Source of the DNA: a virus
Strand: one strand, 5' to 3'
Virus record (IMG/VR): IMGVR_UViG_3300028131_000005
Location: 14,890 to 78,889 of that record
DNA length: 64,000 nucleotides
Positions 27,993 through 61,856 of the stretch are shown here, piece by piece. The translations under genes were made by a program, and so were the position numbers. The notes below the pieces were generated by a model. It did not search any database and had not been told where the DNA came from. It saw only the letters and a program-made list of their open reading frames with translations. Within the stretch, counting starts at the first letter, position 1. Every line of letters starts with the position of its first letter.

Positions 27993-29147
27993 ATGAGAAT
28001 TAAACCAATAAATGAATTCATGAATATTTTAGAAGCACAGCAGAATCTAAAATTAAATGTACCAAAAGATGTTAAAGACCTTCATAAACTTTTTAAGAAG
28101 AATAAAAGGGAATTATACATTGTTGGAGGAGCTGTCCGAGATGCACTTCTTGGCCAAAAACCAAAAGACTTTGATTTAGCAACCGATGCTAAGCCAGAAG
28201 AGGTTATAAAAATCTTAAAATCTGGAGGAGTTCCAACAATTGGAGAAGTTGGTCATCAGTTTGGAGTTGTAATTGCAAAAACACCAAGTTTTGCAGAAGG
28301 AATGGAAATTGCTACATTTAGAGAAGACATTGGAAAGGGTAGAAGACCTGATGCTGTAGAATACTCAACAATAGATAAAGATGTTCTTAGAAGAGACCTT
28401 ACAATCAATGCGTTGTTTTACGATATTGAAAGTCAAAAAGTAGTTGACCTGGTAGGAGGAGTTGCAGATATTCAAAGTAACACAATTAGAACAGTTGGTC
28501 GAGCTCAAGAAAGATTTGATGAAGACCCATTAAGAAAATTAAGAGCATTGAGATTTGCAGGTAGAACAGGAAGTAAACTTGAAAAGAATACAGCAGAGGC
28601 TATAATTAGCGATAACAGCTTAGAAGATATCAGTAGCGAAAGAATTAGAGACGAGTTTAAGAAATCTGTAGAAAGCGCAAAGTCTGCCAAGTTCTACTTA
28701 GATATGGTTTCGGAATTTAGTCTTTGGGGAGTAATGTTTCCCGGCTTGGAAATCAACAAAACATTTTTAGATACTAATAATTGGCTTTTGCAAATTACTC
28801 AGTTGTTTGGAGATAACCAAGAAGAACTTCTTAAAAAAGAATTAAATAAGATGTCTTTTTCAAATCAAGAAATAGATACAATTATATTCTTTAAAAGATT
28901 TTTAGAACTTAAACCAGAAACTGCGTTTCAATTAAGTAAGGAATGGAAAATTGCAAAATTAGATAAAAAATTACTTTTAGAATTTTCTAAGATAAATAAA
29001 CTAGACCTTAAATTAGTAAAGGCATTCTTTAAATACAAACCTTCTACGAATGGAGGTCAAATAATGAAAGAATTTGGTCTTAAAGGTTCTGCAATTGGAG
29101 ATAAAATAAAAGAAATAGAAACAGAAAAATTTAAAAAATTACTATAA
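27993..29147 (+). CDS. cca: CCA-adding tRNA nucleotidyltransferase (class II) with leader MRIKPINEFMNILE
   Basis: VGGAVRD, DFDLAT, EIATFR, RRDLTINA, EDPLRKLRALRF, ERIRDE; poly(A) polymerase activity cannot be excluded. Confidence 0.85.
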   Translation: MRIKPINEFMNILEAQQNLKLNVPKDVKDLHKLFKKNKRELYIVGGAVRDALLGQKPKDFDLATDAKPEEVIKILKSGGVPTIGEVGHQFGVVIAKTPSFAEGMEIATFREDIGKGRRPDAVEYSTIDKDVLRRDLTINALFYDIESQKVVDLVGGVADIQSNTIRTVGRAQERFDEDPLRKLRALRFAGRTGSKLEKNTAEAIISDNSLEDISSERIRDEFKKSVESAKSAKFYLDMVSEFSLWGVMFPGLEINKTFLDTNNWLLQITQLFGDNQEELLKKELNKMSFSNQEIDTIIFFKRFLELKPETAFQLSKEWKIAKLDKKLLLEFSKINKLDLKLVKAFFKYKPSTNGGQIMKEFGLKGSAIGDKIKEIETEKFKKLL

Positions 29148-34840: not shown

Positions 34841-36847
34841 ATGAGTAGAGTTTTAACGTCAGAGGCATTTATGTTAGTCAACGGTTTAGATATTCAACAT
34901 TCAGGAGAATGGGAAGATTATTTAGAAATGAATGCACAGATAAATGGTTTAACAAGGGAAGAATATGCAGCATACTATTTAAACACACAATGGCAAATGC
35001 AGTGTATGGAAAGTATTGTTACTTTATTTGAAGCTAAAAAAGTTACAAGAAAGCAATTAGATAAGGCTCTTGGCGAAATCACAAGAATTACTCAAGATTT
35101 GAAAGCAACCGTTCTTTTATGGAAAGATGCTAAAGAAAATGGAAATGGTGCTAAAGAAAAAGAACATTTAGATACTTTAAAGAAATTAAATGCTGAGAAG
35201 AAAGAAGCAGAGAAAGAAGTAGAAGGGTTTATTAAAGGACTTGATAAGAATGTAGAATTAGACATGTCAGAATCTGTTAATGAAGGTTTTAGCGCAAAAG
35301 AAAAATCTTCGGTCGAAGCTATTACAGTAGCTGTTGAAAATTGGTTAGGTGATTATGACAACGTTGAAGATTTCAGAGAGTTTGCAACCCATTCTACACA
35401 TAAAGATTCGAAAGAAAAGGAAAAGATAATAGCAAAAGCTTTATCTAAACTTCGAATCATGAATTTTGATGATGGTGAAAAAGAGCCACATGAGTATTTG
35501 ATTAAGAAAAAATCTAAAGAATTAACAAAACATATTGCAATGGAGCTTGGTCAAGCTTGGGAATCAAAAGTTAATGAAGGTACTGAAGTTACCAAAGATA
35601 TGTGGGACAAAGAATGGCCACTTAAAAAAGTATTTGGAAAAGAATACGAGGCTAATTTCGCAAAAAGAGTAGAAGCAGCAATGTCAAAAGCTAAAGACGA
35701 AGAACAAGCTGAAGAATGGGCTTATAAAAACTTTAAACAACTTCCAAACCCTGCAAAAGGAATGACTATCGAAGAATCTGTATTTAACGAAGCTAAATTT
35801 GTGAGCCACTATGCGCCTGGAGATGAATTTATGCGAAAAAAAATCAAAAGTATAGAATTGATTGATAAGAGAAAAGAAATTTATACTATAACATACGTAG
35901 ATGGAGAAACTCAAAATGTTCAAGCAGGTACAGGAATGCAATTTCACGTAAAACGACTTTTTGATGAATCAATTGTGAATGAGAAAAAAGGAGGCCCATG
36001 GCCAGAACAATTAGAAAAAGGTTTAACCCACTGGGGTCACAAAAAAGGAAGTCATGTCAGAGAACTTAAAACCCTTCCTTGTAGAATTGGAAGAAATGCA
36101 AATGATTATGGTGGACCTAACCATGCACAAGAACTTGCAGACCTTAATATGAAAGACCCAATGGTTAAGAAATTCTTTAAGCCTAAATTTAAAACTAGAG
36201 CAGATGGAAATTATGTAAATGACTATGTTGAACTAATTCCTAAAAAGGGTTATTTATATAAATTATTTGTAGGTACTGGAGGATTTGAATATTTCTGTTT
36301 AGCGATTAAGCCAGGAGAGGTTTACATATTTAGAAAATATGACCGAGCATATAACCAATATGAATATTTCCAGCATGAAGAAGGTATGTCAACAAGATCA
36401 GGAGTATTTGATTTTAAAAGACATAGAGAAGAAGAGCAATGGAAATGGAATAAACAAGAACCAGAAAGCGCTAGTCATATCGTAAAAGTTGGATGGGGAA
36501 TCATGGATATTGGTCTAGAGTATACTCAATTAGAACTTCCATTCGAGCATCTAAAAACTTATGAAAGTTTTGTTACTGAAAAAAAAAACCTAACTAGTGA
36601 AATTAAAGACGCATTAGAAAATGGTTTAGTTAATGTTGGAGGAGACAGGGTTAAAGTTTCTGTTACAAATAAAAACCAATATAAAATTTATCCATACGAC
36701 TCTCTTAGTGATGGTGATTGGACAAAAGCAGATTTACGAGATAATTTCAAAGATTTAGTTGACGACCTTAATTTTGCATTTAATGGGAAATACGCATTTT
36801 CACCAATTGATGTTACTAATAAAGAATGGATAATAGAATTACTCTAA
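34841..36847 (+). CDS. Modular putative virion polyprotein (668 aa) with ES(x)VNE linkers
   Basis: ESVNE, ESKVNE, ESVFNE, ESIVNE and HLKTYESFVTE separate unrelated segments; GATATATAA at 34810. Confidence 0.6.
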   Translation: MSRVLTSEAFMLVNGLDIQHSGEWEDYLEMNAQINGLTREEYAAYYLNTQWQMQCMESIVTLFEAKKVTRKQLDKALGEITRITQDLKATVLLWKDAKENGNGAKEKEHLDTLKKLNAEKKEAEKEVEGFIKGLDKNVELDMSESVNEGFSAKEKSSVEAITVAVENWLGDYDNVEDFREFATHSTHKDSKEKEKIIAKALSKLRIMNFDDGEKEPHEYLIKKKSKELTKHIAMELGQAWESKVNEGTEVTKDMWDKEWPLKKVFGKEYEANFAKRVEAAMSKAKDEEQAEEWAYKNFKQLPNPAKGMTIEESVFNEAKFVSHYAPGDEFMRKKIKSIELIDKRKEIYTITYVDGETQNVQAGTGMQFHVKRLFDESIVNEKKGGPWPEQLEKGLTHWGHKKGSHVRELKTLPCRIGRNANDYGGPNHAQELADLNMKDPMVKKFFKPKFKTRADGNYVNDYVELIPKKGYLYKLFVGTGGFEYFCLAIKPGEVYIFRKYDRAYNQYEYFQHEEGMSTRSGVFDFKRHREEEQWKWNKQEPESASHIVKVGWGIMDIGLEYTQLELPFEHLKTYESFVTEKKNLTSEIKDALENGLVNVGGDRVKVSVTNKNQYKIYPYDSLSDGDWTKADLRDNFKDLVDDLNFAFNGKYAFSPIDVTNKEWIIELL

Positions 36848-39744: not shown

Positions 39745-40248
39745 ATGAAACGTATCCTACTCCTACTTATTTTAATAACATCATTTATTACAAAATCTCA
39801 AACTATTAACTTTCATCCTAGTTCTTCTCCAGCAGAAATAGTTTTTTTAACTAAAGCAGCCCAAAAATATATTAATGACGATGATGTCACAATTATTTAT
39901 CAACCATACTCACCTTTAAATAGAGCATTTAACGGGGTAACTTATCAATATAATAAGTATCTTTATCAAATATCTTTATCTGTATTTAGAACCGATAATA
40001 TTCTAAGAACTTGGGCTTTATTTCACGAAGTAGGTCATATTATTGATTTCCACAAAGGCAGATTAGAACAAATGCCAATCCGATGGAAAGGAGAAGAATA
40101 TAAAGAATATTTAGATTGGAAGGATAGGCCATGGGAAAAAAGCGCTGAAAAACACGCTAGAAAATTATGGAAAGATATAATGGGTTTTCCAGCCCCTTTT
40201 GAACTTTTAAATTCTTCTGAGATAGAATTTAAGTGCGAACATAAATAG
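39745..40248 (+). CDS. Secreted zinc metallopeptidase-like protein
   Basis: Signal peptide; HEVGH followed by PWEKSA. Confidence 0.7.
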   Translation: MKRILLLLILITSFITKSQTINFHPSSSPAEIVFLTKAAQKYINDDDVTIIYQPYSPLNRAFNGVTYQYNKYLYQISLSVFRTDNILRTWALFHEVGHIIDFHKGRLEQMPIRWKGEEYKEYLDWKDRPWEKSAEKHARKLWKDIMGFPAPFELLNSSEIEFKCEHK

Positions 40249-40283
40249 GATATATAATATCATAATAAACATACTAATTAGTG

Positions 40284-43200
40284 ATGAAAAACAAATTTAT
40301 AAATGAAAACACATATTTAGATGCGTCTAATGATTTTGTAAAAGAATTAGAAAAATCAAAAATTTTAGCAGATAATATAGATGTTTCAGTTGGCCCTTCT
40401 CAATGGGGTAAACCAGGAGAACTTAGATTTAGAGACCATGTTACATTAAGAGCAGCTGGAATAGAAACTGAGTTATACGTAATACCTAGAGGAAGTTACA
40501 CTGAATTCGAATTATATACCGATACTGGATATGATACAGGAAGAGAAGTAAAAGTAGGTGATGCTAAGACTATTATTAAAGCAATGAAAAGATACGTTAA
40601 TAAAATGAATGAATCGATGGTTAATGAAGCTAAAGTCAAACTTCCTAAAGGAATTGTAAAGCATAAAGATATTCCAACTTGGGCTGGGTGGGTTGCACAG
40701 CATTCTGATGGAGAATGGACTTGGTACGAATCTTACCCTTTTGTCGTTAACTTTAAAGACGGTGGAGGTGCTTGGAAACAAGAAGAATCAGAAGGATATC
40801 AAATTTACACTGGAGTAAAAACAGACCCTAAAAACTGGAAAGAAGGCCCATATCGAGTAAGATATGATGGAGATGTTGTACTGAAAGAATCTAGACATGT
40901 AATGACATTAGAATCATTTGTAAATGAAGGTAAAGTTGATTGGAATATCATCGCAAAAGAAGTAGCAAATAGATTGAAAGAAGGTTCATGGCCATGGGCA
41001 ATTAAAAATGGCGTAGAAAATATAACCACTGAAAATATCGGAAGTGTTCTTATAAGCGGTGGATATACTACTACTTCTGGTGTCGAAAAAAATATAGGAG
41101 GTGTTATTGATAAAGTATTAGCTCTTGTCAAAGAATCATTTGTAAATGAAGAATTGCCTACACAAGAAATAGACCCAAATGCTTTTCAAAATCCTTACAA
41201 ATCAGATAAGAATTTCTTTAAAAGAGGTTATAAAGATGAAGAGGTAATGGACGATGTTGTTAAGACTAGACCTGTAAAAATACAAGCAAGCCAATTAAAA
41301 CCATCACAAGATGCAGTATATTTAGGAAAAGCACTTGGCATGGCTATTGGTGGTGTTGAAGGCGGAAATCTTGAAGCTGTTATATCACAAGACAATAGAA
41401 TCTTAGATGGTCATCATAGATGGGCAGCTACTATCTTTAATAACCCTAAAGCAAGGGTAGGAGGGGTTCAAGCAGAACTTAAAATTGGAGATTTAGTACC
41501 AGTTCTTAGACAAGCAGGAGATGCACTTGGAAATAAAAGAGGTCTTCCACCAAAAGGAGGAGACCAAAATATTTTCAAAGCAACTTTAGATGATGTCAAA
41601 GACGCTATATATGATGGTAAATATATGAATCCTCAGTTTTATAACAGAGATAAAGCAATTGCTTGGTTTGAAGAGCAAGGTGAAAAGAAAATACAAAGTG
41701 CATTGAATCTTTTACAAAGAGTTGGTCCTCCAGCTGGAGCTCCACCAAGAGCAGATATGCCTAAGATTGAACCAGAACAGGTTCAACAAGTTGCAAAAAA
41801 ACTACAAGGTGGTGCAATTGATGTAAGAGCACCCTATGTAAAAGAAGAGTTGAATCATTTAACTTCTTTAGAAAATTTTATAGATGAAAAGAAGCCAGGT
41901 CCAGATCCTTACATGACCGGTTTAAGTGATGGCGACGAAGAGGATAAAGAGGAGCAAATGAAAAAGCAGGCTGCCATGGACGATGACGATCCAAATGCAT
42001 ATAAAGATATGCCAGGAGACAAAGAGGCCAGAGAAAAAGGCGACATGAAGAAATCAAAACATACTAGTGCGTATCATAAAAAATTCAAGAAAGTTAAAAG
42101 TCTTGAAGAGTTTGCAAATGATTGGGCGGTTATTAAAGAGGGATATAATGCAGATGCAGTCGCTCAAAATGTTGTAGTTGCGCTAGACAGCGCTGCCCAA
42201 TTCTTTCCAAGATATCAACCTGCTGAAGCAGAAGCAGAAGTAAAAGATGTATTGAAGAAATATAAAAAACTAAAGGGTAAAAATGCTGAAAAAGCAGCTA
42301 AAGAGATAAGAAACTCTTTAGAAGATAGAGGTTTATTAGCAAATGATGTTTTACCATTAGATGTAGAAATAATCATTATGGATAACCTTAATGAATCTAA
42401 AGTACATGAAGCTGCAACTGATAGATTTTTACAATCAGCAGCAAGAAACTTAGCAAAACAGATGAGAGGAAAATCTGCTAGCAGGACAACTCTTAAGAAT
42501 CGATTAAATTCAATGCCATTGGCAAACATGCTTAAACCAGATGAATTGGAAAAGATTATTGATTATGCAATGGAGGAAATGGGATTAGCTGAATCAGTAA
42601 ATGAAGGTACAGATGATGTTGTGTTTACAATAGATGATGGAAATTTAGATAATAAATTTTTAATGACTAAAAGTCTTTCCAGAAATCTAGACTATCAACA
42701 TGACAGCGGAGACCAATATTATGTTTTACCAAAAAGAGATTTTGATAGATTAGAAGACTATGCAGATTCTCATGGTTATGATACAGACACTATTTATGTA
42801 ATTGAAGAATCAGTAAATGAAGAGAAAGACAATCTTTATTTACAACTACATAGAAAATATGCTCAACAAATCAAAGGACTTAAGGCTAAAAAGATTAAGA
42901 AATTAACTGACTTAGTAAGTGTACAAAGATGGTCGATGGAATATAGAGAAGACTATTTCGATATGGATAAAAAGAAAAAGAAAGAACTTTCAGCGGAATA
43001 TGATGAGGAAAGAAGGCTATTTAAGAAATATATGGCTAAAGACTATTCAGTAATGCTACCTAAAGGAACAGAAAGTCTTAGAGAATCCATCAATGAGGGA
43101 GAAATATCTGATACATTCGATCTTATTTTAGATACTATTAATAAGTATAAGAAAATAAAACCAGTAAAGCCATATTTTAATGCAGATAGAAGAATGGCAT

Positions 43201-43709
43201 TAAAATCTAAAGGACTTGAGAATTTAGAAGATATCCGTGACCATTTAGATAAAACTCTAAAAGATTTTACAGTTACGTCAATTTCTAAAGGCGATAATTA
43301 TCCTTCGCAAGAAAGTTTTAGAGTAATTAATAAAAATAGAAAAATTTATTCTATTGCAATGGACCTTAAGGAACCTGGAGAATTTGATATTACATACTCA
43401 GACTTAAATGAATCAGTTAATGAAGAGAAAGACCAAACTAACGATAAAAGCAAAATAGACGGTGAAGGTATAGAAACTGGTCTTAAGAAAAAGGCTGATG
43501 AAACTGGAGTTCCAATTGGAATTTTAAGAGTTATTATGAGAAGAGGAATGGCAGCTTGGAAAAGTGGTCACAGACCTGGAACTAATTCAACTCAATGGGG
43601 TTATGCTAGAGTAAATTCATTCTTAACAAAGGGTGATGGAACTTGGGGCAAAGCTGACAAAGATATGGCTAAAGAGGTAAGAGATGGTGGTCACGATAAA
43701 AAACTATAA
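40284..43709 (+). CDS. Large modular putative virion polyprotein (~1141 aa) with ParB/Srx-like and DUF5824-like modules and ten ES(x)VNE-type linkers
   Basis: LKPSQ...ILDGHHRWAA; C-terminal RGMAAWKSGHRPG...WGYARVNSF; repeated linkers. Confidence 0.65.
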   Translation: MKNKFINENTYLDASNDFVKELEKSKILADNIDVSVGPSQWGKPGELRFRDHVTLRAAGIETELYVIPRGSYTEFELYTDTGYDTGREVKVGDAKTIIKAMKRYVNKMNESMVNEAKVKLPKGIVKHKDIPTWAGWVAQHSDGEWTWYESYPFVVNFKDGGGAWKQEESEGYQIYTGVKTDPKNWKEGPYRVRYDGDVVLKESRHVMTLESFVNEGKVDWNIIAKEVANRLKEGSWPWAIKNGVENITTENIGSVLISGGYTTTSGVEKNIGGVIDKVLALVKESFVNEELPTQEIDPNAFQNPYKSDKNFFKRGYKDEEVMDDVVKTRPVKIQASQLKPSQDAVYLGKALGMAIGGVEGGNLEAVISQDNRILDGHHRWAATIFNNPKARVGGVQAELKIGDLVPVLRQAGDALGNKRGLPPKGGDQNIFKATLDDVKDAIYDGKYMNPQFYNRDKAIAWFEEQGEKKIQSALNLLQRVGPPAGAPPRADMPKIEPEQVQQVAKKLQGGAIDVRAPYVKEELNHLTSLENFIDEKKPGPDPYMTGLSDGDEEDKEEQMKKQAAMDDDDPNAYKDMPGDKEAREKGDMKKSKHTSAYHKKFKKVKSLEEFANDWAVIKEGYNADAVAQNVVVALDSAAQFFPRYQPAEAEAEVKDVLKKYKKLKGKNAEKAAKEIRNSLEDRGLLANDVLPLDVEIIIMDNLNESKVHEAATDRFLQSAARNLAKQMRGKSASRTTLKNRLNSMPLANMLKPDELEKIIDYAMEEMGLAESVNEGTDDVVFTIDDGNLDNKFLMTKSLSRNLDYQHDSGDQYYVLPKRDFDRLEDYADSHGYDTDTIYVIEESVNEEKDNLYLQLHRKYAQQIKGLKAKKIKKLTDLVSVQRWSMEYREDYFDMDKKKKKELSAEYDEERRLFKKYMAKDYSVMLPKGTESLRESINEGEISDTFDLILDTINKYKKIKPVKPYFNADRRMALKSKGLENLEDIRDHLDKTLKDFTVTSISKGDNYPSQESFRVINKNRKIYSIAMDLKEPGEFDITYSDLNESVNEEKDQTNDKSKIDGEGIETGLKKKADETGVPIGILRVIMRRGMAAWKSGHRPGTNSTQWGYARVNSFLTKGDGTWGKADKDMAKEVRDGGHDKKL

Positions 43710-43719
43710 TATATAAGTT

Positions 43720-44112
43720 ATGAAAAAAGTAGTATTATTTGAACAATTTGTTAATGAGAACATTAACAAAAGAATTCCGGAATTCGTAGAAAAAATTAAA
43801 AACGCGGAGACTGAATTCGATGCAAAAAATAAAAGGTCAGAGATACTTAAATTAGCTAAGAAATCTGGCGGAGAAACTATCGACCAAGATACTAAATTTA
43901 CCTATTCTCCAGATGGTGAAATATTTGTCGTATATAAATATGAAGACCAAGATGCAGTAGATGCCTGGTTATATAAGGGTGAAGGATCTGAAAAGTCTAA
44001 AGAAAATCTAGTAAAGTCTATGGTATATGCTGAAACTGGAAGACCCGGTTATAGAGTAATGTCAGATGGCAGTAAAACAAAGATAGGTAAACACGGAGAA
44101 ACAAAATATTAA
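43720..44112 (+). CDS. Leader-bearing protein (MKKVVLFEQFVNE)
   Basis: Leader; AATATATAAGTTATG upstream. Confidence 0.65.
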   Translation: MKKVVLFEQFVNENINKRIPEFVEKIKNAETEFDAKNKRSEILKLAKKSGGETIDQDTKFTYSPDGEIFVVYKYEDQDAVDAWLYKGEGSEKSKENLVKSMVYAETGRPGYRVMSDGSKTKIGKHGETKY

Positions 44113-44116
44113 GATT

Positions 44117-45208
44117 ATGAGCAAAGTAGTATTATTTGAAAAATTTATAGAAGAAAGGTCAAATGCCGGGAGAGCATGGCAAGGAAGATTAGATAACGTA
44201 GACGATTTAATGGCCTGGTTATATAGAAAAGATATTCTTTCAACACAGGATAAGATGGAAAAAGACAAGATATTTACCGGATATTATAGATTCTATAATG
44301 ACGGAGATACACCAGATTGGTTAAGAATAGATCGAAATGAAACTCCTGAAGAAGCATTAGAAGACGCTCTTGACAACTTTATTAAGGAAATACTTGCTAA
44401 ATATGCTGGTAAATATGATAGAAACACATTTAGATACGATACTCTGTTATCTCAATTAAATACTTTAAAAAGTAATTTGAAAGATACTGCTACTCCGCAG
44501 TTTTCTCAATACGACGTACATTCTTTTTTATATTTCTATAATAAAAATCCTAAAACTGGAAATGCAAAGTTTGATAAATCAGTTGTGCAGTTAGAAAAAT
44601 TATTTAAAAAATTCGAAAAAACAGCAGATGCTCAAATTGAAAAATATCTTAAAGATAGTAAAAAGAAAGAAGAATTTGGAGGAATATCTACAAATCTTAT
44701 TTTAGGTGCTAAAGTTGAGAAAATGCTAGATGCAGGAATATGGAATGACAAAAACAAAAAAGAATATAAAGATATAGTTGAAGTGGGTGATAGACTTTAT
44801 CAAATGATTGAAGAAATTATTGAAGGTATAAAAATGGCTCAGAAACTAGAAGAAGGTAATTATGAAGCATTAGACAAATCTACTTTAATTATGGAAAAGT
44901 CAAGTGGTAGAGACTTTATGAATTATGTGTTAGCACATAAAAAAGGAACAAGTGCTTTCAAACAATTTAAAATTTCAGATGAACATAGAAAAGAAATAAT
45001 AGATATGTGTATTGAAGTTATGGATGAAGTAGGAGATAAAGGTTCTTCTGTTCTTGGAAGCGGCTTATATATTAATGATGAAAAATTCTTAAGAGCATAT
45101 TCACAAGGAAATGTAGGACCTGAAAGAATTTACAATAAGGTTGAAGCATTTTTAAATAAAAACTATCCTAAATTAGATGTAAGAGTATCTAAAGGAAATA
45201 TGGACTAA
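44117..45208 (+). CDS. Leader-bearing protein (MSKVVLFEKFIEE), probably two modules
   Basis: Leader; YYRFYNDGD motif; internal LEEG...LIMEK junction. Confidence 0.6.
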   Translation: MSKVVLFEKFIEERSNAGRAWQGRLDNVDDLMAWLYRKDILSTQDKMEKDKIFTGYYRFYNDGDTPDWLRIDRNETPEEALEDALDNFIKEILAKYAGKYDRNTFRYDTLLSQLNTLKSNLKDTATPQFSQYDVHSFLYFYNKNPKTGNAKFDKSVVQLEKLFKKFEKTADAQIEKYLKDSKKKEEFGGISTNLILGAKVEKMLDAGIWNDKNKKEYKDIVEVGDRLYQMIEEIIEGIKMAQKLEEGNYEALDKSTLIMEKSSGRDFMNYVLAHKKGTSAFKQFKISDEHRKEIIDMCIEVMDEVGDKGSSVLGSGLYINDEKFLRAYSQGNVGPERIYNKVEAFLNKNYPKLDVRVSKGNMD

Positions 45209-45212
45209 GATT

Positions 45213-45794
45213 ATGAAAAAAGTAGTATTATTTGAACAATTTATAAAAGAAGCATCTAGGGGTAAATGGACTAAAATCGATCCTAAAAAAGATAAGGACC
45301 TAGATGACCATTTTTACGATTTAATAAATGTTGCATATGCTGAAATAGGAGGCCATGTTAAAATCAATAAACCAGAAGACGTATTTGCTGATAAAGACTG
45401 GACTTTTTGGAGAGGAATAGACCTTCATGGTTCTCCAGACTTAGACCTTATTATTTGGGGTAAAGATACCAAGTATGGCGTTAAATTTGCAGGAGTCGGT
45501 CATGATGGTGAAAGAGACAGCAGAAAAGAATACTTAAATCATAAAGGCAGCGACCTTAAAAAACTAGGATATTATGGTGAAGTCTCTGGTAAACTAGCAG
45601 AAATTTTACTAATTAAATATGGAGTTCCTGCAGTATCTGATGAAGCAGAAGTAGAAGCTGCTATTGGTGGTAAAAATGTCGAATGGCATGGACAACATCC
45701 TAAAGATAATACTATTCCTGGAAATGGATGGTACAGCAGAAAAATAGGAGGTCAGATGCATACTAAGATACTTGTAGGTAGACCTAAAATATAA
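45213..45794 (+). CDS. Leader-bearing protein (MKKVVLFEQFIKE)
   Basis: Leader DNA identical over 32 nt to that of 43720. Confidence 0.65.
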   Translation: MKKVVLFEQFIKEASRGKWTKIDPKKDKDLDDHFYDLINVAYAEIGGHVKINKPEDVFADKDWTFWRGIDLHGSPDLDLIIWGKDTKYGVKFAGVGHDGERDSRKEYLNHKGSDLKKLGYYGEVSGKLAEILLIKYGVPAVSDEAEVEAAIGGKNVEWHGQHPKDNTIPGNGWYSRKIGGQMHTKILVGRPKI

Positions 45795-45796
45795 AT

Positions 45797-46330
45797 ATGA
45801 AAGTTGTATATTTACATGGTCTAGAGTCAACATCAAGGCCATCGAATCCTAAGATAAAATGGTTAAATGCCAATTTTGATGAGGTATATGCTCCCCAAAT
45901 TGATTATAGAAATGAAAAGACTTTCAAAGACCTTTTAGGTAAAATTAAGTCAATGAACCCAGATCTTATTATTGGTTCTTCAATGGGCGGATATTTTAGT
46001 TATATTATTGGAAGTACTCTTAAAATTAAAACATGTCTATTTAACCCAGCAGTTCATAGTAGAAGTATGGAACCTGCAGTTGATGATTCTAATAAAAAAG
46101 GAAATCAAAATAATGTTTATTTAGGAGATAAAGATAGAGTAATTCCAGGAGATGGCGTTAAAAAATACTTTGCTTCACACGGCACGGGAACTTTTAAATA
46201 TAGTTCTTACAAAGGAGGACACAGAGTACCTTATAATGTTTTCACTTCATCAATTGCTGAAGTAGCAGGCATAAAAGAGTCTTTACATATAATGCTATAC
46301 GAAGAATATAACCAGAGTAAACTAAAGTAA
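45797..46330 (+). CDS. YqiA/YcfP-like alpha/beta hydrolase with leader-like motif at the C-terminus
   Basis: YLHGLES, GSSMGG nucleophile elbow, NPA, D and GGH; tail KESLHIMLYEEY. Confidence 0.8.
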   Translation: MKVVYLHGLESTSRPSNPKIKWLNANFDEVYAPQIDYRNEKTFKDLLGKIKSMNPDLIIGSSMGGYFSYIIGSTLKIKTCLFNPAVHSRSMEPAVDDSNKKGNQNNVYLGDKDRVIPGDGVKKYFASHGTGTFKYSSYKGGHRVPYNVFTSSIAEVAGIKESLHIMLYEEYNQSKLK

Positions 46331-47805: not shown

Positions 47806-49290
47806 TCAATTAACTACTATCTTCTGAATTACAATGTTTTCTTTTATAATCATATAGATTCCAGTAGAAAGTTTATCAGGATTAACCTCTTGACCCATCA
47901 TGTTTATTATTTTAAGATTTTCTTCTTTAATAGTCTTTAAAACATTAGCCGGAGTACCTTCTCCATTAGATATGATTATTGCACTTGCATCTGAGTTTGA
48001 ATCTATTTGAGCATCTGGTTTAGATATGATAATGACGTCATCTATTGGTGATATTCCACCTTGTGAATTTTCAATATCTAAGTTTCTTTGAACTTGAGAA
48101 ACTGCGTATCCTGCATTTAATCTTCCAGCTCCCATTTGCCCTATATAATCAGGGTTTAAATCGTCTATATTTCTTGCAGTGAATCTTAGTATACTATCAA
48201 TTTCTTCATTAGTTATTGTAGGGTCTAAAGAAAGCATAAGACCAACTGTACCTGTAACCATAGGAGCAGCATAAGAAGTTCCGCTTCCGAATAGATACCA
48301 GTTAGGTGCTGCAGATAAAGGTACTACATAACCAGGAGCCATTAAATCTACACTTGCATTATGTTGGTGAGTTCCACCACTTCCATAAGTATTCCAGTGT
48401 TTATCATCAGCACCAACACTAGATACTGCGAATACATTTTCGAATGCTGCTGGGTAAACAAGAGCTTCAGAACCTCCACATGTTGAACCATTTCCGGCAG
48501 CTGCAACTAAAAATGTACCATTATCATATATTTCATTCATTGCGTCTTGAATATATTGATTGAACGTACATCCGCTAGTCCAACTCATATTTATAACTCT
48601 GTAACCTGAATATGAAGCTTCTAGAACTTCATTGTAGTTCATTCTATAAAGTGCAAGTTTAGAATTGTAACCATGGCTGGCAAGTCCTAAACCATTGGCA
48701 TTAAGTGGGTTATTGGTATTTCCAGCAGCAAGAATAGCAACTGCAGTACCATGACCTTGACTAGATGTATTTGTGTTATCATAATGAACTACCTTTCCTA
48801 CAATTTCTTCGTGATTTACAAAGTAATTTTGATCAGATATTGCAACAGTTGCAGAATCTCCTTTTGAGAAATTCCAAGCCTGCGCAGCGTTTGTTAATTT
48901 TAAAGGCCAGTGAGACCAATATCCAGGATCTGTTGGTGCTACTCCGTAATTATTAAATACCCCATAATCTATAGGTTCTTCTAATGATTTGTAATTAGGT
49001 CCAAATTCAACTCCTTTGATTCCTTGCATTTCTACCATACTTACATAAAGGTCATTTACGTCACAGTCACATTTAATTTCATAAACATTTAGAAGTCTTT
49101 CATTTCTAGATGCTGGTAATGCCTGTTCTATTGAAAGGTTATATTGAGCATCTAAAATCTGCCATTCTTCTTTTTCTGTTATTTGATTTGGATTTTTAAC
49201 TGTTGCCCACACTACGCCCTGTGCAAATGACATGGAAGTTAAGAAAATTGCTAATAATGATAGCGCTAAGGTTTTTACTGTTGTTTTCAT
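47806..49290 (-). CDS. Secreted S8 (subtilisin-like) serine protease with T9SS-like C-terminal domain
   Basis: Signal peptide; VAISD, HGTAVA, AAAGN, SGTSYAAP; C-terminal IINMMGQEV...LSTGIYMI. Confidence 0.88.
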   Translation of the reverse strand: MKTTVKTLALSLLAIFLTSMSFAQGVVWATVKNPNQITEKEEWQILDAQYNLSIEQALPASRNERLLNVYEIKCDCDVNDLYVSMVEMQGIKGVEFGPNYKSLEEPIDYGVFNNYGVAPTDPGYWSHWPLKLTNAAQAWNFSKGDSATVAISDQNYFVNHEEIVGKVVHYDNTNTSSQGHGTAVAILAAGNTNNPLNANGLGLASHGYNSKLALYRMNYNEVLEASYSGYRVINMSWTSGCTFNQYIQDAMNEIYDNGTFLVAAAGNGSTCGGSEALVYPAAFENVFAVSSVGADDKHWNTYGSGGTHQHNASVDLMAPGYVVPLSAAPNWYLFGSGTSYAAPMVTGTVGLMLSLDPTITNEEIDSILRFTARNIDDLNPDYIGQMGAGRLNAGYAVSQVQRNLDIENSQGGISPIDDVIIISKPDAQIDSNSDASAIIISNGEGTPANVLKTIKEENLKIINMMGQEVNPDKLSTGIYMIIKENIVIQKIVVN

Positions 49291-49424: not shown

Positions 49425-49790
49425 TTAATTAATAACTATAACTTTTTTAGTACCGAATAAAGTATCTTTCTGATAAAATTTGGCAATGTAATTTCCTTCT
49501 AATAAGTTTTCAATTCTTACTTTTCTTCTGCCTTCTTCTATTTCTACAATTTTAGTTTGTCCAGTATCAGTGTTAAGTAACTCGACCGTTGTTATTTCTG
49601 CCCAGTCTTCCCATTCCATTTTTACTTCTGAAATAAAAGAAGGATTTGGGTAGATTCTAACTCTGAAGTTTTCTAACATGTTTGAAGATTCTACAACATC
49701 CGGTTTTTGAATAAAGTCATATTGACTCATTGCATTTCCACTTGTTAAAAGTGCTAAGGTTAATAGTGTTTTTGTAACGTTTCTTTTCAT
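49425..49790 (-). CDS. Signal peptide plus stand-alone T9SS type A sorting domain
   Basis: RIYPNPS...NTDTGQ...NLLEGNYI...KKVIV. Confidence 0.75.
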   Translation of the reverse strand: MKRNVTKTLLTLALLTSGNAMSQYDFIQKPDVVESSNMLENFRVRIYPNPSFISEVKMEWEDWAEITTVELLNTDTGQTKIVEIEEGRRKVRIENLLEGNYIAKFYQKDTLFGTKKVIVIN

Positions 49791-56672: not shown

Positions 56673-57023
56673 ATGAAAAAACATCTTAAACTTTTTGAAG
56701 AATTCGTAGAAGAGAAGAAAAAGGCTAATAAGCCTAAGAAGAATACTGCTGCAAAAATGAAAGATGTAGATAAGAAAATCAAGAAATCTGTAAAGAAGGC
56801 AAAGACTGCTGTTAAAGACGTTGTAAAGTCTCAAGAAGAAATTAAAGGAGATAAAGCAACTCCAGAAGATAAAATGAGAGGAGCTCTTGCAAAGTTGCAA
56901 ACACAAAAGCATAAAGCAGAAATACAAAAACAGGCTATTAAAAAGCAAGAATTAGCTGTTAAGTCAAAAATACAGACTTTGAAGAAGAAAGAAAAGGCAA
57001 CTAAGAAATTAGAAGAAAAATGA
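56673..57023 (+). CDS. Lys-rich protein with leader (MKKHLKLFEEFVEE); possible internal DNA-binding protein
   Basis: Leader; GATATATAAAGTATG upstream; very Lys-rich. Confidence 0.6.
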   Translation: MKKHLKLFEEFVEEKKKANKPKKNTAAKMKDVDKKIKKSVKKAKTAVKDVVKSQEEIKGDKATPEDKMRGALAKLQTQKHKAEIQKQAIKKQELAVKSKIQTLKKKEKATKKLEEK

Positions 57024-57141
57024 AAAACAAATATAGAATCATCTGTAACGAAGTTACGTATGATTTCCACGATTTAAGCGGTGTAGAACTTAGTGTTGCT
57101 ATACTAAAAAGATTTAATATACCTTTTGAACTAATAGAATT

Positions 57142-57627
57142 ATGAACAAAGACCTAATTTACCGAGTACTAGCAATGGTATTAGGTATTGCGTGTCCCTT
57201 GATAATGATTAATTGGTTTCCAGAAGTAACATCACTTAGCGGTTTTTTTGAAACAGAAGCAGTTCCCTTGTTTATTATAATGAATGTGGTTACAGCCTAT
57301 TTCTTTTATCTTTTACCAAATTGGAAAATTTCAGGAGTTTTATTGTTTTTAGTAACTGCAGTTCCAGTACAGTATTATAAACATCTACATGATATTTTAG
57401 CAGTCTTATTTTTTGCATCATGTATCTTTGCTGTTTGGAAATCTAATAGGTACAGATTTCTCATCATTCCATTTATGATTTCAATATCTGTAATACCATT
57501 CAGCCTTTTATGGGCTGAAATATCTGGCATATATTCAATATGTGTTTTTCATACTTTAATGGTTTGGGAGAGAAACAGACTACAGAAAGAGAAAAAAGAA
57601 ATAGAATCTATAATAGAAGATATATAA
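57142..57627 (+). CDS. Multi-pass membrane protein
   Basis: Five to six hydrophobic segments. Confidence 0.6.
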   Translation: MNKDLIYRVLAMVLGIACPLIMINWFPEVTSLSGFFETEAVPLFIIMNVVTAYFFYLLPNWKISGVLLFLVTAVPVQYYKHLHDILAVLFFASCIFAVWKSNRYRFLIIPFMISISVIPFSLLWAEISGIYSICVFHTLMVWERNRLQKEKKEIESIIEDI

Positions 57628-57630
57628 TTA

Positions 57631-58641
57631 ATGAAAAGAATTAAACTCTTTGAAGAGTTCTTGAATGAATTTAAGTATGGAGATAAGTTGTTTGCAGATC
57701 CTGATACTCCGGAGTATGATGAAGGTAAATATAAGAAATGGATATCAGCCAAATATGGTGAATCAGAAACTGATACTCCAGAAGAACGCGAAGCGCTGAC
57801 ACAAATCTGTGATTATGTAGAACATGGTGACAAGTATTCCGCAAAACTGGCTGTAAAATTCATCAGACGACATGGAAAAAATCTAAAGAAGAAATTTGGA
57901 GAGATATTAGACCCTGAATATCAAAGAAAATTAGATACTATTTATAGAGGTGCTACTGGAAATCATGATTATATCGTTAAGGCAATTTGGAATGACAAAG
58001 ACTATCAGAAACGCATAATGCCAGGAGGAGACCTTTATAAATTTATTATGGAGAACCCTATTAATTGGTATTCTAAAATAGATGATTTTAGAAATACACA
58101 AGGAAGTTCAGGAGGCGTTGCCGCAGGTAATTACAATTGGGGAGGTAGTTTCTGGATTGGAATTAATGATGCAGGAGTTCAAACTTCTCAAAACAGTAGT
58201 GGTTTTTTAAGCTTCGCTACAGAATTAAGAGATGCTAGGTCTTTTTCTAGTCCTAAAAAAGCATTCGGAGATCCTGCTAAAAAGAGATGGCCTATAATTT
58301 CAGAAGTCGATTTTAATAAAGTTAGGGAAATAACATACATGAATCCTGAATGGATGAAAAACATCGGAGAGTATGATGAAAATGAAATATGGCTTCTTGG
58401 AAGCTCGTTTGATGCAAAAAGAATATGGGTTAGAAGTCCTTATCAAACAGGTATATGGGGCCCACAACATGCTTATTGGAAATCAGCATATCCAATAGCA
58501 AAGGCACTTTATTTTCAACATATAAATGCAGGTAAATTTGATGAAGCACTTAAAAAAGCTTTAACAAAAGATGGTAAATTATATGCAAAAGGATATCTTA
58601 GCGCAAAGGAAAAATCTTATATATTAACCCCTCCTAAATAA
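57631..58641 (+). CDS. Putative ADP-ribosyltransferase (R-S-E type) with leader
   Basis: IYRG, FLSFAT, ENE in order. Confidence 0.65.
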   Translation: MKRIKLFEEFLNEFKYGDKLFADPDTPEYDEGKYKKWISAKYGESETDTPEEREALTQICDYVEHGDKYSAKLAVKFIRRHGKNLKKKFGEILDPEYQRKLDTIYRGATGNHDYIVKAIWNDKDYQKRIMPGGDLYKFIMENPINWYSKIDDFRNTQGSSGGVAAGNYNWGGSFWIGINDAGVQTSQNSSGFLSFATELRDARSFSSPKKAFGDPAKKRWPIISEVDFNKVREITYMNPEWMKNIGEYDENEIWLLGSSFDAKRIWVRSPYQTGIWGPQHAYWKSAYPIAKALYFQHINAGKFDEALKKALTKDGKLYAKGYLSAKEKSYILTPPK

Positions 58642-58651
58642 AACGTTAGAT

Positions 58652-59659
58652 ATGAAAAGAATTAAGCTTTTTGAAGAGTTTCAGTATGGTAAAAGGTTAT
58701 TTGCAGACCCACAAACCGTTACAAATGCTACAGGCTCCGGTAAAAAATATAGTAGATGGTTAGCTAAAAATGGCGGAGAAGAAGAAGATACTCCCGAAGA
58801 AAGAGAAGCCCTTATGAATATCGCAGGTTATATTGAAGACGATGTTGAGCAATATGGTAAAGAGGCAGCTAAATTTCTTAATAAAAACGGTAAGTCTTTA
58901 AAAAAGAAATATCCTCAAATTTTAAATCCAACATACGATAAATCATACTTTGATGGTTCTACTATTTATAGAGGTTCTTCTATTCCGGTGGAAGAAATTG
59001 TAAAAGCGGCAAATAATGACAAGAAACATCAAAAAAGAATTATGCCAGGAGGAGACGTTTATAACTTCATTATGGATAACCCAAGAGATTGGTTATCAAA
59101 AATAGAAGACTTCATGAATACTCAAGATATTAAAAATGGAGATTATAGCGGTGCAGGTCCTAATTGGATACCTCTTAATGTTTCACAGGAAGTTAAGTCT
59201 CAAAATAAACAGGGTTTTTTATCTTTTACAACATCTCTTAGGCATGCCATGGCATTTGGTTCTGGTCAAGGAGTTATAAAAATGAAAGCAGGCAGATGGA
59301 ACACAATTACAGGAGTAGATTATAAAAAAGTAGAAGATAGAACCTATCTCAATCCAGCATGGACTACTGAAATATCTAGTTGGAGAGAAATGGAAGTATG
59401 GGTTCTTGGTAATTCCATACCGGCTCAAAGAATATGGGTGAAATCTCCATATTCAATAGGCATACATTTTCCAAGAAGTAATAATTACAAATTAGGGCAT
59501 CAGATAGCAAAAGCACTTTATTTTCAACATATAGACCCTGTAAAATTTGAAGAAGCATTGAAATCAAAAAGCATGGGTATTACAACGAATAAGATTGATG
59601 ATGAAAGGTGGTTTAAGGAATTAAAATTAGAATCTTTTATATTAAACCCTCCTAAATAG
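58652..59659 (+). CDS. Putative ADP-ribosyltransferase (paralog 2) with leader
   Basis: IYRG, FLSFTTS, EME; colinear with 57631. Confidence 0.65.
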   Translation: MKRIKLFEEFQYGKRLFADPQTVTNATGSGKKYSRWLAKNGGEEEDTPEEREALMNIAGYIEDDVEQYGKEAAKFLNKNGKSLKKKYPQILNPTYDKSYFDGSTIYRGSSIPVEEIVKAANNDKKHQKRIMPGGDVYNFIMDNPRDWLSKIEDFMNTQDIKNGDYSGAGPNWIPLNVSQEVKSQNKQGFLSFTTSLRHAMAFGSGQGVIKMKAGRWNTITGVDYKKVEDRTYLNPAWTTEISSWREMEVWVLGNSIPAQRIWVKSPYSIGIHFPRSNNYKLGHQIAKALYFQHIDPVKFEEALKSKSMGITTNKIDDERWFKELKLESFILNPPK

Positions 59660-59672
59660 AAATATATAAGTT

Positions 59673-60566
59673 ATGAAGAAGATTAAACTTTTTGAGGAGT
59701 TCTTACTCGAGTTCGATTATGGCAAACAATTATTTGCTGATCCGGATACCGTTGCTGGAACTGATAAATTCAAGAAGAAAGACTACACTAATTGGTTGAA
59801 AAGTATAGGTTCTAAAATTGAACCAGATACTGAAGAAGAGGAAGACATATTGCAAGACTTCATGGACTACTTTGAAAACGGCATAAAGATATGGCAAAGA
59901 CATATCAAGACTCTTATTGGGTTAAAGAAAAAATACCCACAAATGTTAGACCCTCAAGCCTATTTTGATTTTGACACGGCATATAGAGGTGCTTCAATGC
60001 CAATGGAACAATTTATAAGGATAGTAAATAATAATAAGGCATGGAAAACAAACATGATAAACGGTTATCTAAAGAAGTTAAAGGAAACTGACCCGGCATA
60101 CAAACCTGGACTCAGCGACTCTATTAAAACCAAAACAAAAATCAAACAGCAAAACTGGATAAAGAAATTTGTAGATGAAAAAGGTAAGCTGTTGCAAATA
60201 CATGACATAAAAGGAGAAACTTATCAATCTAGAGGCGATAAGGGTTTTATATCTCTTTCAACTAGCCCATTAGATGCAAAGAAATTCATGAAAGAGTATC
60301 AACTTGCACACATTGCAAAGGGAAGAATGCCAGTAGTCATACATGTTGATTATTCAAAAATAGCTAAAAAAGCGTTCATGAATCCTGAGTTTGTAGCAAA
60401 GCTGACAACATGGGAAGAGGACGAGTTTTTAGTAGAAGGTAGCGAATTACCTATCAAAGAAATTACTTTTCTCAATCCACTTACAGCATATTTATTCGAT
60501 GATAAAATTGATAGAGAAACTCAATTAAAAATATATAAAGCGCTTTTTGACTATGAAGAAGATTAA
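59673..60566 (+). CDS. Putative ADP-ribosyltransferase (paralog 3) with leader
   Basis: AYRG, FISLSTS, EDE. Confidence 0.65.
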   Translation: MKKIKLFEEFLLEFDYGKQLFADPDTVAGTDKFKKKDYTNWLKSIGSKIEPDTEEEEDILQDFMDYFENGIKIWQRHIKTLIGLKKKYPQMLDPQAYFDFDTAYRGASMPMEQFIRIVNNNKAWKTNMINGYLKKLKETDPAYKPGLSDSIKTKTKIKQQNWIKKFVDEKGKLLQIHDIKGETYQSRGDKGFISLSTSPLDAKKFMKEYQLAHIAKGRMPVVIHVDYSKIAKKAFMNPEFVAKLTTWEEDEFLVEGSELPIKEITFLNPLTAYLFDDKIDRETQLKIYKALFDYEED

Positions 60567-61011
60567 ACTTTTTGAGCAGTTCTTAAATGAAGCAAAGTAC
60601 AATGCATGGACTATGCCTGATAGAAAGATGCTTGCTCAAGAGTTTAGAGTAGAGCATGAAAAAAAGGGAAGAAGAAACTTTGCAACAGAAGAAGAATTTG
60701 TAGATGCTGTCACCAATGCTGAAATTATTGAAGTTGACAGTAAAATGGATAGAAAAATAGGTAATAGATCTGGAACAAAGGACTTTGATTCTCTACATAG
60801 CCTAATTTCAAATTATGCGTCATATCCTAAATATAGAAATGAAGATACTTTAAAGGACATGTACACAAGATTTGGTAATGGAAAACCAATGGACTATCCT
60901 ATAGTATTTAAAGATGAACATGGTAGAATGACTATATTTAGTGGCAACACCAGAATGGATATAGCATTTCAGATGAATTTTAATCCAAAGGTATTAATGG
61001 TGAATATATAA
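60553..61011 (+). CDS. ParB/Srx-like domain protein with leader (MKKIKLFEQFLNE)
   Basis: YPIVF...IFSGNTRM. Confidence 0.6.
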   Translation: MKKIKLFEQFLNEAKYNAWTMPDRKMLAQEFRVEHEKKGRRNFATEEEFVDAVTNAEIIEVDSKMDRKIGNRSGTKDFDSLHSLISNYASYPKYRNEDTLKDMYTRFGNGKPMDYPIVFKDEHGRMTIFSGNTRMDIAFQMNFNPKVLMVNI

Positions 61012-61014
61012 GAT

Positions 61015-61482
61015 ATGAAACACGTAAAACTATTTGAAGAGCTGATTAATGAGATTGGTGATGCTAGTGCAAAACCATATAAGCATAAACTACAACTAAA
61101 GAATGACTTCCGCGAATATCATGAATTTGAAACTGATTTAGGTACCCCTTATGAAGTCACATTTGACTTTGACGAAGATATGACAAAAAAGGAAATGTGG
61201 ACAGTAGTAGATATTAGTTTTGGTACAATTGAAAATGGAGACCTAAATAATGTTGTTGTAACTAATAAGGGTGAATTGTTTAGAGTAATGGCTACAATAG
61301 TAGATTTGACAAAGAAAGTTCTTAAAAAGAATAAAAATATAAAGTCGCTCTCTTTTACAGGTTCTAAAAACAAGGGAGATAACGATAGAAGACGAAACAA
61401 CATCTATATGGCATATATTAAAAAGCACTTAAAAGCGAAGAATGTAGAAGATGATGGAAATCAAATTATAGTAGACCTATGA
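61015..61482 (+). CDS. Leader-bearing protein (MKHVKLFEELINE), function unknown
   Basis: Leader; AATATATAAGATATG upstream; TNKGELFRVMAT...R.NIY. Confidence 0.6.
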   Translation: MKHVKLFEELINEIGDASAKPYKHKLQLKNDFREYHEFETDLGTPYEVTFDFDEDMTKKEMWTVVDISFGTIENGDLNNVVVTNKGELFRVMATIVDLTKKVLKKNKNIKSLSFTGSKNKGDNDRRRNNIYMAYIKKHLKAKNVEDDGNQIIVDL

Positions 61483-61856
61483 AAAGTATAAAATTATTTG
61501 AGGAATTTATGGAAGAAGGTTTTAGAGATAAACTAAAAGCAAGTAAAGATAAATTAGTTAAAAAGGCTAAAGAATTCGGAAAGGCTTTAAAAGAAGAAGG
61601 TAAAGAAACTAAAGAAGCATTCGATAAAGTCAAAGATTCTATTAAAAAAGGAGAAAAGCTTTCTGCTGAAGATAAGAAGATGATTAAAAAACAAATGGGA
61701 GATGTGTTAAAAACAGCAGGTCTAACAGCAGCTACTTTTTTACCAGGAGGTTTTATATACTTAGCGTTGACTCAAAATAAATACACTAAAGACTACACTT
61801 TACCATCATCATTCAAAGAATCTAACGACGATTCAGATCTAGATTATTTAAAATAA
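61479..61856 (+). CDS. Leader-bearing protein (MKSIKLFEEFMEE) with hydrophobic LPGG segment
   Basis: Leader; QMGDVLKTAGL...FLPGG (weakly LETM1-like). Confidence 0.55.
   Translation: MKSIKLFEEFMEEGFRDKLKASKDKLVKKAKEFGKALKEEGKETKEAFDKVKDSIKKGEKLSAEDKKMIKKQMGDVLKTAGLTAATFLPGGFIYLALTQNKYTKDYTLPSSFKESNDDSDLDYLK

Follow-up and report, generated by a model that had tools for sequence, protein, structure and literature searches.

In bacteriophage T4, the internal proteins IPI, IPII and IPIII and the protein Alt carry a capsid-targeting sequence (CTS), which gp21, the prohead protease, cleaves off (Mullaney and Black 1996; PMC9026906, PMC3012670). Residues 4 and 7 of the CTS serve targeting and residues 8 and 10 processing; gp21 cuts after L/I-X-E, and an Asp at CTS position 10 (P1) blocks processing but not targeting (PMC9026906). 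Head proteins cut at many sites are also known, such as T4 gp22, gp67 and gp68 and the inner-body or ejection proteins of phages phiKZ, 201phi2-1 and SPN3US (PMC9026906; PMC10052503; PMC5694885). Polyvalent proteins, in turn, are large virion-associated proteins with many unrelated domains in mosaic arrangement, ParB/Srx-type domains included, which are predicted to enter with the DNA and to be processed into functional units (Iyer, Burroughs, Anand, de Souza, Aravind 2017, PMC5512222). Here we describe P0001, a protein of 1141 amino acids (aa) encoded by one open reading frame (ORF) in a stretch of 64,000 nucleotides (nt), hereafter the window, which spans bases 14890-78889 of the 78.9-kb IMG/VR viral contig IMGVR_UViG_3300028131_000005. 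Judging from its sequence, P0001 is probably a cargo polyprotein that was made by fusion of leader-tagged genes, is loaded into the phage head and is cut there by the prohead protease.

P0001 and its relatives resemble the T4 internal proteins in the leader pattern, in the unrelated, hypervariable small proteins behind the leader, in the presence of an S77 protease in the lineage and in the sizes of the pieces. T4, however, uses one leader for one cargo, whereas here up to eleven cargoes follow one another and the site is repeated internally. Moreover, the joints between them (Table 1) often hold the processing half only (ESVNE), with P2 strongly Asn and P3 mostly Val. With the polyvalent proteins P0001 shares a mosaic of several unrelated domains (2-15 there, eleven intervals in permuted order here). 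Processing of polyvalent proteins is assigned to a built-in zincin-like metallopeptidase, while the sites of P0001 are of the head-protease type and homologous to an N-terminal leader of the capsid-targeting kind. The polyvalent hallmarks MPTase, MuF, virion RNA polymerase, ART and PBECR were not found in P0001 by Pfam or PHROG, remote versions being possible in the poorly modelled modules. The likeness to multi-site head processing lies in a gp21-related protease, a short motif, a cut after Glu and several sites per protein, but the cuts described there dismantle scaffolds and propeptides that are discarded, while those proposed here would separate folded, exchangeable modules that also exist as genes of their own. 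RNA-virus polyproteins bring their own protease together with replication and structural proteins; in contrast, P0001 has no protease domain according to Pfam scans of the whole protein and of its modules, and these modules are accessory and variable.

Among cultured phages, proteins with the family DUF5824 (gp130 of Pelagibacter phage HTVC008M, named 'cytidyltransferase', and a protein of Methylophilales phage Melnitz) have a C-terminal domain 57-60% identical to that of P0001. HTVC008M also has an S77 protease, and its gp130 reads ..DTVNE|E.. before M5-like and M11-like parts (modules are numbered M1 to M11 as in Table 1). These cultured proteins differ from P0001 in having few joints, none of them with the strict ES(V/I)NE motif. 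HTVC008M also has genes (L014 16799-17212 and 18564-19643) that start with MKSFKDFQNVNE and MKTFTDFS.. The initial annotation of the window had presented the polyprotein strategy as one not recognised as described at this scale. This stands in part: multi-domain polyvalent proteins (PMC5512222) and cutting at multiple sites (PMC9026906, PMC10052503) are known, but their combination was not found in the searchable literature on capsid-targeting sequences and polyproteins, which gave no account of leader-derived sites punctuating exchangeable cargo modules.

The same annotation had listed ten protease-site-like linkers, and the translation of the ORF holds all ten at the coordinates claimed. An extended motif was defined as E-S, 0-2 residues, V/I, N/D and E, plus the long E-x-F-hydrophobic-x-E/D forms. 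P0001 has ten matches to it, against a mean of 0.02 (maximum 2) in 5000 shuffled versions of its sequence. Among the contig's 347 ORFs, the motif occurs only in P0001, in the ORF at 34841-36847 (four times) and in one weak instance elsewhere; an orthologue of this second polyprotein lies at 132449-134491 of the related phage contig G006. The joints of P0001 read (V/I/L)-(N/T/D)-E everywhere but at sites 709 (V-H-E) and 613 (Asp at P1). A logo of 446 distinct joints was obtained with P2 unconstrained in the search pattern. It shows Asn at P2 in 59% of them and Thr in 17%, one of A, E, G and K at P1', and K at P2'. The Ser of the joints is encoded by each of the four TCN codons, and GTA as well as GTT, and GAA as well as GAG, are found, so what is conserved is the peptide. 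This synonymous variation rules out pure DNA-level repeats as the origin of the motif, and tandem duplication is ruled out by the modules being unrelated to one another. Exact or near-exact DNA repeats of 16-20 nt are present at some joints, namely AGAATCATTTGTAAATGAAG twice (40910-40929 and 41132-41151, the 20-nt exact repeat that brackets M3) and GAATCAGTAAATGAAG three times (joints 42591, 42807 and 43410), and could act as recombination points for module exchange.

The AlphaFold2 (AF2) model of the whole protein was built on a 57-row alignment, shallow for most modules, and has a mean predicted local distance difference test score (pLDDT) of 61. Confident domains were predicted at residues 9-111, 216-283, 290-521 (pLDDT above 90), 641-700, 711-770 (about 90), 971-1040 and 1058-1125. 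Nine of the 11 sites fall in segments with pLDDT below 50 between predicted domains (binomial P = 0.003), and site 215 is borderline; in M7 the pLDDT drops from about 90 to 34 at residue 771. The expectation of compact domains joined by disordered linkers was thus borne out, in that the linkers lie between predicted domains and none inside a confident one, the exception to a clear gap being site 709, in a helix of low confidence. All structural matches are confined to single modules and none crosses a joint. Foldseek with the whole model gave no significant match, and the VIA matches of M1 (CapZ-/Mediator-like, Z 6-7), M6, M7, M10 and M11 were in the chance range and left uninterpreted. Cuts after each final Glu would free an N-terminal peptide of eight residues, and eleven pieces 65-246 aa long (7-27 kDa).

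About 11 unrelated modules of 60-250 aa had been proposed. No significant mutual similarity was found among them, but 'unrelated' goes slightly too far for M5 and M11, which are the two halves of DUF5824. Whether the protein was scanned whole or module by module with Pfam and PHROG, DUF5824 was the only Pfam family above cut-off (52.6 bits vs a cut-off of 25, for M11), and M4 matched the unannotated phrog_2859. The DUF5824 profile is split in P0001: its positions 1-61 correspond to M5 and 63-123 to M11, 434 residues apart, with five inserted modules (M6-M10) in between. Matches to M11 (E<=1e-3) come from 1785 clusters at 50% identity; they mostly occupy the extreme C-terminal end of the matching proteins, which are 92-1433 aa long, and the Atlas clusters of M11 are 100% viral. 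By these comparisons M11 is the constant C-terminal end of the polyprotein family, and it could conceivably have an anchoring or targeting role. A literature search on DUF5824 returned 0 papers.

M4 was described initially as a ParB/Srx-like module on account of its DGHHRW motif. Folded alone, it reaches a pLDDT of 92 and a predicted template modelling score (pTM) of 0.87. ParB, Noc, Srx, Atu1540 and SbnI account for the ten best Foldseek rows and for all 20 from VIA; further down the Foldseek list, ParB, Noc, Srx and SbnI appear again. These matches are weak (E 0.04-0.5; Z 3.0-4.8, with about 85 residues aligned at a root-mean-square deviation of 3.3-3.9). The motif is present as ILDGHHRW, and L-D-G-H-H-R-W, a DGxHR-type Arg-containing pocket motif, is invariant in 46 M4 homologues. 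The Pfam model of the ParB-like nuclease did not match M4 alone at E<=1, and a sequence search of the PDB with M4 gave nothing meaningful. The label 'ParB/Srx-like' therefore derives from the fold matches, the only structural ones obtained, together with the invariant motif; on the predicted model it is reasonable but not proven.

Further information came from relatives of P0001. A search of 5.8 billion proteins returned 345 long relatives, 120 of which were used for the block and 4-mer counts. Nearly all the listed long relatives share the C-terminal domain of P0001 at their end; they are collinear or permuted, and their sources are many independent metagenomes. The BLAST blocks, 85-96% identical, cover the query partially and differ in order among relatives. 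The module order is M8, M4-M6, M1 in P0004, M1 also stands at other positions in P0008-P0011, M8 at other positions in P0004-P0008, M10 in a different context in P0017 and P0018, and M2 follows M5 in the G006 orthologue. Block ends coincide with joints: of 404 ends internal to both proteins, 84% lie 15 residues or less from a joint, against 29% expected, and every one of the ten joints is a cluster of block ends (at residues 93-120 in the case of M1). The joint that closes M6 has the equivalents ES-VNE in P0003 and ESVVTE in P0033. Among 4-mers in the variable parts of the long relatives, SVNE and ESVN show the strongest enrichment (about 97x). Putative sites in these relatives range from 0 to 17 per protein.

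Modules were also found as stand-alone leader-tagged genes, as had been anticipated, in the cases of M4, M5+M11 and M9+M11. M4 forms hundreds of proteins of about 245 aa in many clusters, which make up most of the 120 listed shorter matches. Their leaders of 10-13 residues (MKDYRHFLNE, MKSFKQYLAE, MKNIKTYEEFINE) are followed directly by the conserved start of the module, and the proteins stop just before residue 521, that is, before the next joint of P0001. The leader-final Glu is kept in 38 of 45 M4 homologues and aligns to E289 of P0001. A leader followed by M5 and M11 constitutes proteins of 183-196 aa (P0225, P0234, P0236 and P0238), and P0203 consists of a leader, M9 and M11. In each of these forms the leader stops exactly at the point where the internal joint does. 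Depending on the protein, one downstream module may be preceded by an N-terminal leader, a long internal leader or a bare ES-VNE. When M1 is internal in relatives, the MKNKFINE stretch aligns with the joints KESVINE and NESTINE. The three long linkers of P0001 are indeed copies of the N-terminal leader, with all 13 residues and the initiator Met changed to S, L or F, a signature of end-to-end fusion of adjacent genes. We thus hypothesize that neighbouring leader-tagged genes fused end to end into the polyprotein, which is reshuffled at the joints from one relative to another. The tandem of three leader-tagged genes at 43720-45794 is the arrangement from which such a fusion would yield a polyprotein.

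P0123 (223 aa, on a contig of 6607 bp) shares 99% identity with P0001 over residues 1-221 and ends a few residues past joint 215, so that it is a natural fission product or else a frameshifted copy. Ten or more additional genes of the window open with MK(K/R)(I/V)KLFE(E/Q)F(L/V/I)xE, at 56673-61856 (+), 43720-45794, 30699 and 27993. The leader-tagged set includes three tandem paralogues at 57631-60566 and, at 27993, a gene for a CCA-adding-enzyme-like protein of 384 aa with a GGAVRD motif that starts MRIKPINEFMNILE. Directly after the three leader-tagged genes, at 45797-46330 (+), a homologue of UPF0227 (YqiA-like esterase; PF05728, E = 9e-13) lacks a leader. When the whole protein was compared by tblastn with 50,697 phage records, matches were limited to the C-terminal domain (HTVC008M, Melnitz, C48C1) and, at a weak level, to the ParB-like core, and no cultured phage with the exact joint grammar appeared among these records. 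In PTm1, HTVC008M and T4, the DNA pattern for strict ES(V/I/M)NE does not occur or is no more frequent than in controls.

The leaders match the T4 signal. T4 ipII and ipIII start MKTYQEFIAE, as confirmed on T4 DNA, and a G006 gene starts MKTYEEFINE. Counted back from the Glu (position 0), the leaders have aromatic residues at -6 and -3 and an aliphatic one at -2, which is the T4 CTS layout. This T4-type pattern is found on the stand-alone homologues of M4, M5+M11 and M9 and on at least ten more genes in the window. Of the positions named, the short ESVNE joints retain -2 and 0, with Ser at -3; therefore, the processing half would be kept and the targeting half lost.

The source of the window is an uncultured marine giant phage. 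CheckV gives the contig a completeness of 31%, which implies a genome of roughly 250 kb. Its tail sheath is 32-35% identical to those of giant myoviruses of the Tenacibaculum phage PTm1/pT24 type and 45% identical to that of a 462-kb uncultured phage, which places the phage, as far as the sheath goes, with the PTm1/pT24-type giant myoviruses. PTm1 has an S77 domain, and so do relatives with sheaths 56-80% identical, namely G010 (80%), G006 (76%), and G007 and G008 (58%). In G006 the gene order is portal (phrog_213), a leader-tagged gene of 114 residues, protease (phrog_207, PF03420) and major head protein (phrog_138), and G010 shares the order portal, small leader-tagged gene, S77 protease and major capsid protein. 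The head block of G006 lies about 13 kb upstream of the sheath, whereas the contig of the window has 11.3 kb upstream of the sheath and is syntenic onward. The whole block is therefore predicted to precede the contig start directly, with the phage's own S77 gene just off that end.

In four of four relatives the S77 protease shares one polypeptide with a scaffold-like region (G006 85645-87543, L115 2712-4595, L116 3643-5565 on the - strand, L117 3202-5337), which holds 6-9 copies of Y-x-E-(Y/H)-(I/L/V)-A-E, 14 residues apart. In the G006 protein the protease domain takes up the N-terminal ~210 residues, ahead of the repeats. The layout of this repeat is that of the leader and of the T4 CTS, so the leader may work by imitating the scaffold repeat. 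The capsid proteins of the relatives start MANLINE|AEI, and T4 gp23 reads SFLTE|AEI at 65/66, which we take to be its maturation cleavage site; the T4 annotation has gp21 cleaving gp23. Scaffold, capsid protein start, leaders and joints share one motif.

Several observations weigh against cutting of P0001 in the head. The minimal pattern [LIV]-x-E is not enriched in the protein (24 observed vs 17.7 expected), and because of this the claim of specificity rests on the extended motif. Most joints have Val at P3, where T4 gp21 prefers L or I, and site 613 has at P1 the Asp that blocks processing in T4; a further cut after VIKE (residue 619, nt 42140), just past M5, is possible. The N-terminal MKNKFINE keeps F, I and E and lacks an aromatic residue equivalent to CTS residue 4. 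At site 709, the only one without a clear gap, AF2 predicts a continuous helix (692-726, pLDDT about 54), and M2, M8 and M9 are poorly predicted, so that low pLDDT may reflect shallow alignments and not true disorder. We know of no experimental precedent for an internal CTS. Finally, PF03420 (Peptidase_S77) is not on the 79-kb contig, about 31% complete, nor in the five contigs reached through the polyprotein (G001-G005), and neither PF07068 (Gp23) nor the PTm1 protease protein had a match in G000-G004. These contigs are fragments or more distant phages.

P0001 could instead remain uncut, as a multi-domain polyvalent protein in which the joints are leftovers of leaders kept as flexible spacers or recombination points. 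There are polyvalent proteins of 2-15 domains, some of which, such as the virion RNA polymerase of N4, are packaged unprocessed (PMC5512222), and the DNA identities at joints (the 20-nt repeat 40910/41132 and the three copies of GAATCAGTAAATGAAG) could serve recombination. However, a spacer or scar would not keep exactly the aliphatic P3 and the Glu at P1 while losing the targeting aromatics. The strong Asn/Thr preference at P2 over 446 contexts and a codon usage that argues for selection on the peptide do not fit it either, and even the minimal two-part proteins still carry ES(V)V(T/N)E between their DUF5824 halves. We thus regard an uncut protein as unlikely, though it is the main rival reading. 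That the protein is cut but is no cargo seems to us improbable. It would then be an accessory of the prohead core or scaffold, whose fragments are degraded and expelled like those of T4 gp22, gp67 and gp68 or the SPN3US propeptides. In T4 core proteins and in the propeptides of giant phages, cuts are made at many sites and most of this material leaves the head (PMC9026906; PMC10052503), and M5 is highly charged and of low complexity, like the acidic T4 core peptides. Most pieces, however, are predicted to fold into domains of 7-27 kDa, as large as the T4 internal proteins that are retained, one of them with an enzyme-like ParB/Srx fold and invariant pocket residues, and module content is hypervariable between near-identical phages, which suits accessory cargo better than an assembly part.

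The joints might also serve another process, be it cutting after injection by a protease of the host or another one of the phage, translation from internal starts, or no process at all in a mis-assembled run-on ORF. Two joints contain Met (MNESMVNE and VMTLESFVNE) and T4 has internal starts in genes 17 and 21, but eight joints have no Met. Polyvalent proteins have been proposed to be processed after entry (PMC5512222); the motif, nevertheless, is that which ends the leaders of the lineage and recurs in the scaffold repeat and the capsid N-terminus, and it points to the head protease. Mis-assembly is unlikely because the identical ORF comes from several sequences (the identical protein cluster P0002 has 11 member sequences on record) and relatives come from many independent metagenomes. 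We consider this group of explanations very improbable.

Returning to a cargo polyprotein cut in the head, the comparisons above separate the modules, place the joints in positions equivalent to N-terminal leaders and match them to the T4 signal. We propose that the chain consists of eleven independently folding modules, each behind a T4-type site (hydrophobic, usually Asn, Glu). It would be synthesized from its own promoter-like motif and would enter the prohead core by means of MKNKFINE and the three complete internal leaders, imitating the 14-residue scaffold repeat. On closure of the shell, a gp21-type (S77) protease would cut after the Glu of each joint, releasing pieces of 7-27 kDa that would remain with the DNA and enter the host at infection, one of them presumably an enzyme of ParB/Srx fold. 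It is tempting to go further and picture a plug-in cargo system, in which scaffold repeat, leader and joints make up one peptide code, which loads any protein placed behind it for release by the head protease, leader-tagged arrays collapse into polyproteins or split from them by recombination at the code, and bundles of up to about 17 effectors are delivered at fixed stoichiometry. For this broader model we see the chances as evenly balanced.

Should the joints be cut in the head, sequence alone would suffice to list the proteins that a large, mostly uncultured group of marine giant phages packages and injects. The model would show T4-style internal-protein genes evolving by fusion, fission and shuffling at a protease-site cassette, and would tie the T4 internal-protein paradigm to Aravind's polyvalent proteins by a definite mechanism of processing. 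A further outcome would be a natural design rule by which a single gene could load a phage head with several foreign proteins: leader, cargo, ESVNE, cargo and so forth. The modules are candidates for anti-defence or host-takeover functions, the ParB/Srx-like one foremost.

Table 1. Features of the polyprotein locus and its surroundings (nucleotide positions in the window).
Feature	Nucleotides	Strand	Residues	Remarks
Second polyprotein of the same joint grammar	34841-36847	+	668 aa	ESVNE, ESKVNE, ESVFNE, ESIVNE, leader-like LKTYESFVTE
Promoter-like motif (G)ATATATAA	40250-40257	+		27 nt before the ATG of P0001
P0001	40284-43709	+	1141 aa	ATG 40284, stop 43707-43709
N-terminal leader MKNKFINE (site 0)	40284-40307	+	8 residues	P1 = E8; pLDDT <50
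M1	40308-40628	+	9-115	Predicted alpha+beta domain 9-111, pLDDT 64-81; closes with NESMVNE
Joint NESMVNE	40608-40628	+	109-115	
M2	40629-40928	+	116-215	Closes with full internal leader SRHVMTLESFVNE; low AF2 confidence, shallow alignment
Joint ESRHVMTLESFVNE	40887-40928	+	202-215	Holds full 13-residue leader SRHVMTLESFVNE at 40890-40928
M3	40929-41150	+	216-289	Predicted helical domain 216-283; closes with ESFVNE
Joint ESFVNE	41133-41150	+	284-289	
M4	41151-41888	+	290-535	Putatively ParB/Srx-like (ILDGHHRW); internal leader LNHLTSLENFIDE
Joint EELNHLTSLENFIDE	from 41844	+	521-535	Holds 13-residue leader LNHLTSLENFIDE at 41850-41888
M5	41889-42122	+	536-613	Charged first half of DUF5824; closes with leader-like FKKVKSLEEFAND
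Joint KVKSLEEFAND..IKE	from 42090	+	603-619	Leader-like FKKVKSLEEFAND; P1 = Asp (site 613)
M6	42123-42410	+	614-709	Closes with NESKVHE; homology ends cluster at 693-710
Joint NESKVHE	42390-42410	+	703-709	
M7	42411-42605	+	710-774	Predicted helical domain 711-770; closes with ESVNE
Joint ESVNE	42591-42605	+	770-774	
M8	42606-42821	+	775-846	Closes with ESVNE; alignment depth about 5, low AF2 confidence
Joint ESVNE	42807-42821	+	842-846	
M9	42822-43097	+	847-938	Closes with ESINE; stand-alone with M11 in P0203
Joint ESINE	43083-43097	+	934-938	
M10	43098-43424	+	939-1047	Predicted beta-sheet domain 995-1040; closes with ESVNE
Joint ESVNE	43410-43424	+	1043-1047	
M11	43425-43706	+	1048-1141	C-terminal half of DUF5824
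Three adjacent single-module genes	43720-45794	+		4 nt apart; full leaders MKKVVLFEQFVNE, MSKVVLFEKFIEE, MKKVVLFEQFIKE

An alternative GTG start for the ORF of P0001 lies at 40281. The motif ATATATAA upstream of it, often extended to GATATATAA(G), has 30 copies in the window against 11.7 expected, 27 of them on the + strand and typically 5-30 nt before start codons, those of leader-tagged genes included (for example at 880, 17408, 34811, 36886, 40250, 43709, 56662, 57620, 59662 and 61004). Because of this excess, strand bias and position, ATATATAA is likely a phage promoter; it resembles the T4 late promoter TATAAATA. Signal-peptide-like N-termini were observed in the genes at 39745-40248 (+), 47806-49290 (-) and 49425-49790 (-), the latter two on the - strand inside a region that is otherwise on the + strand. 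Their sequences suggest secreted or surface proteins and may hint at a Bacteroidota host.

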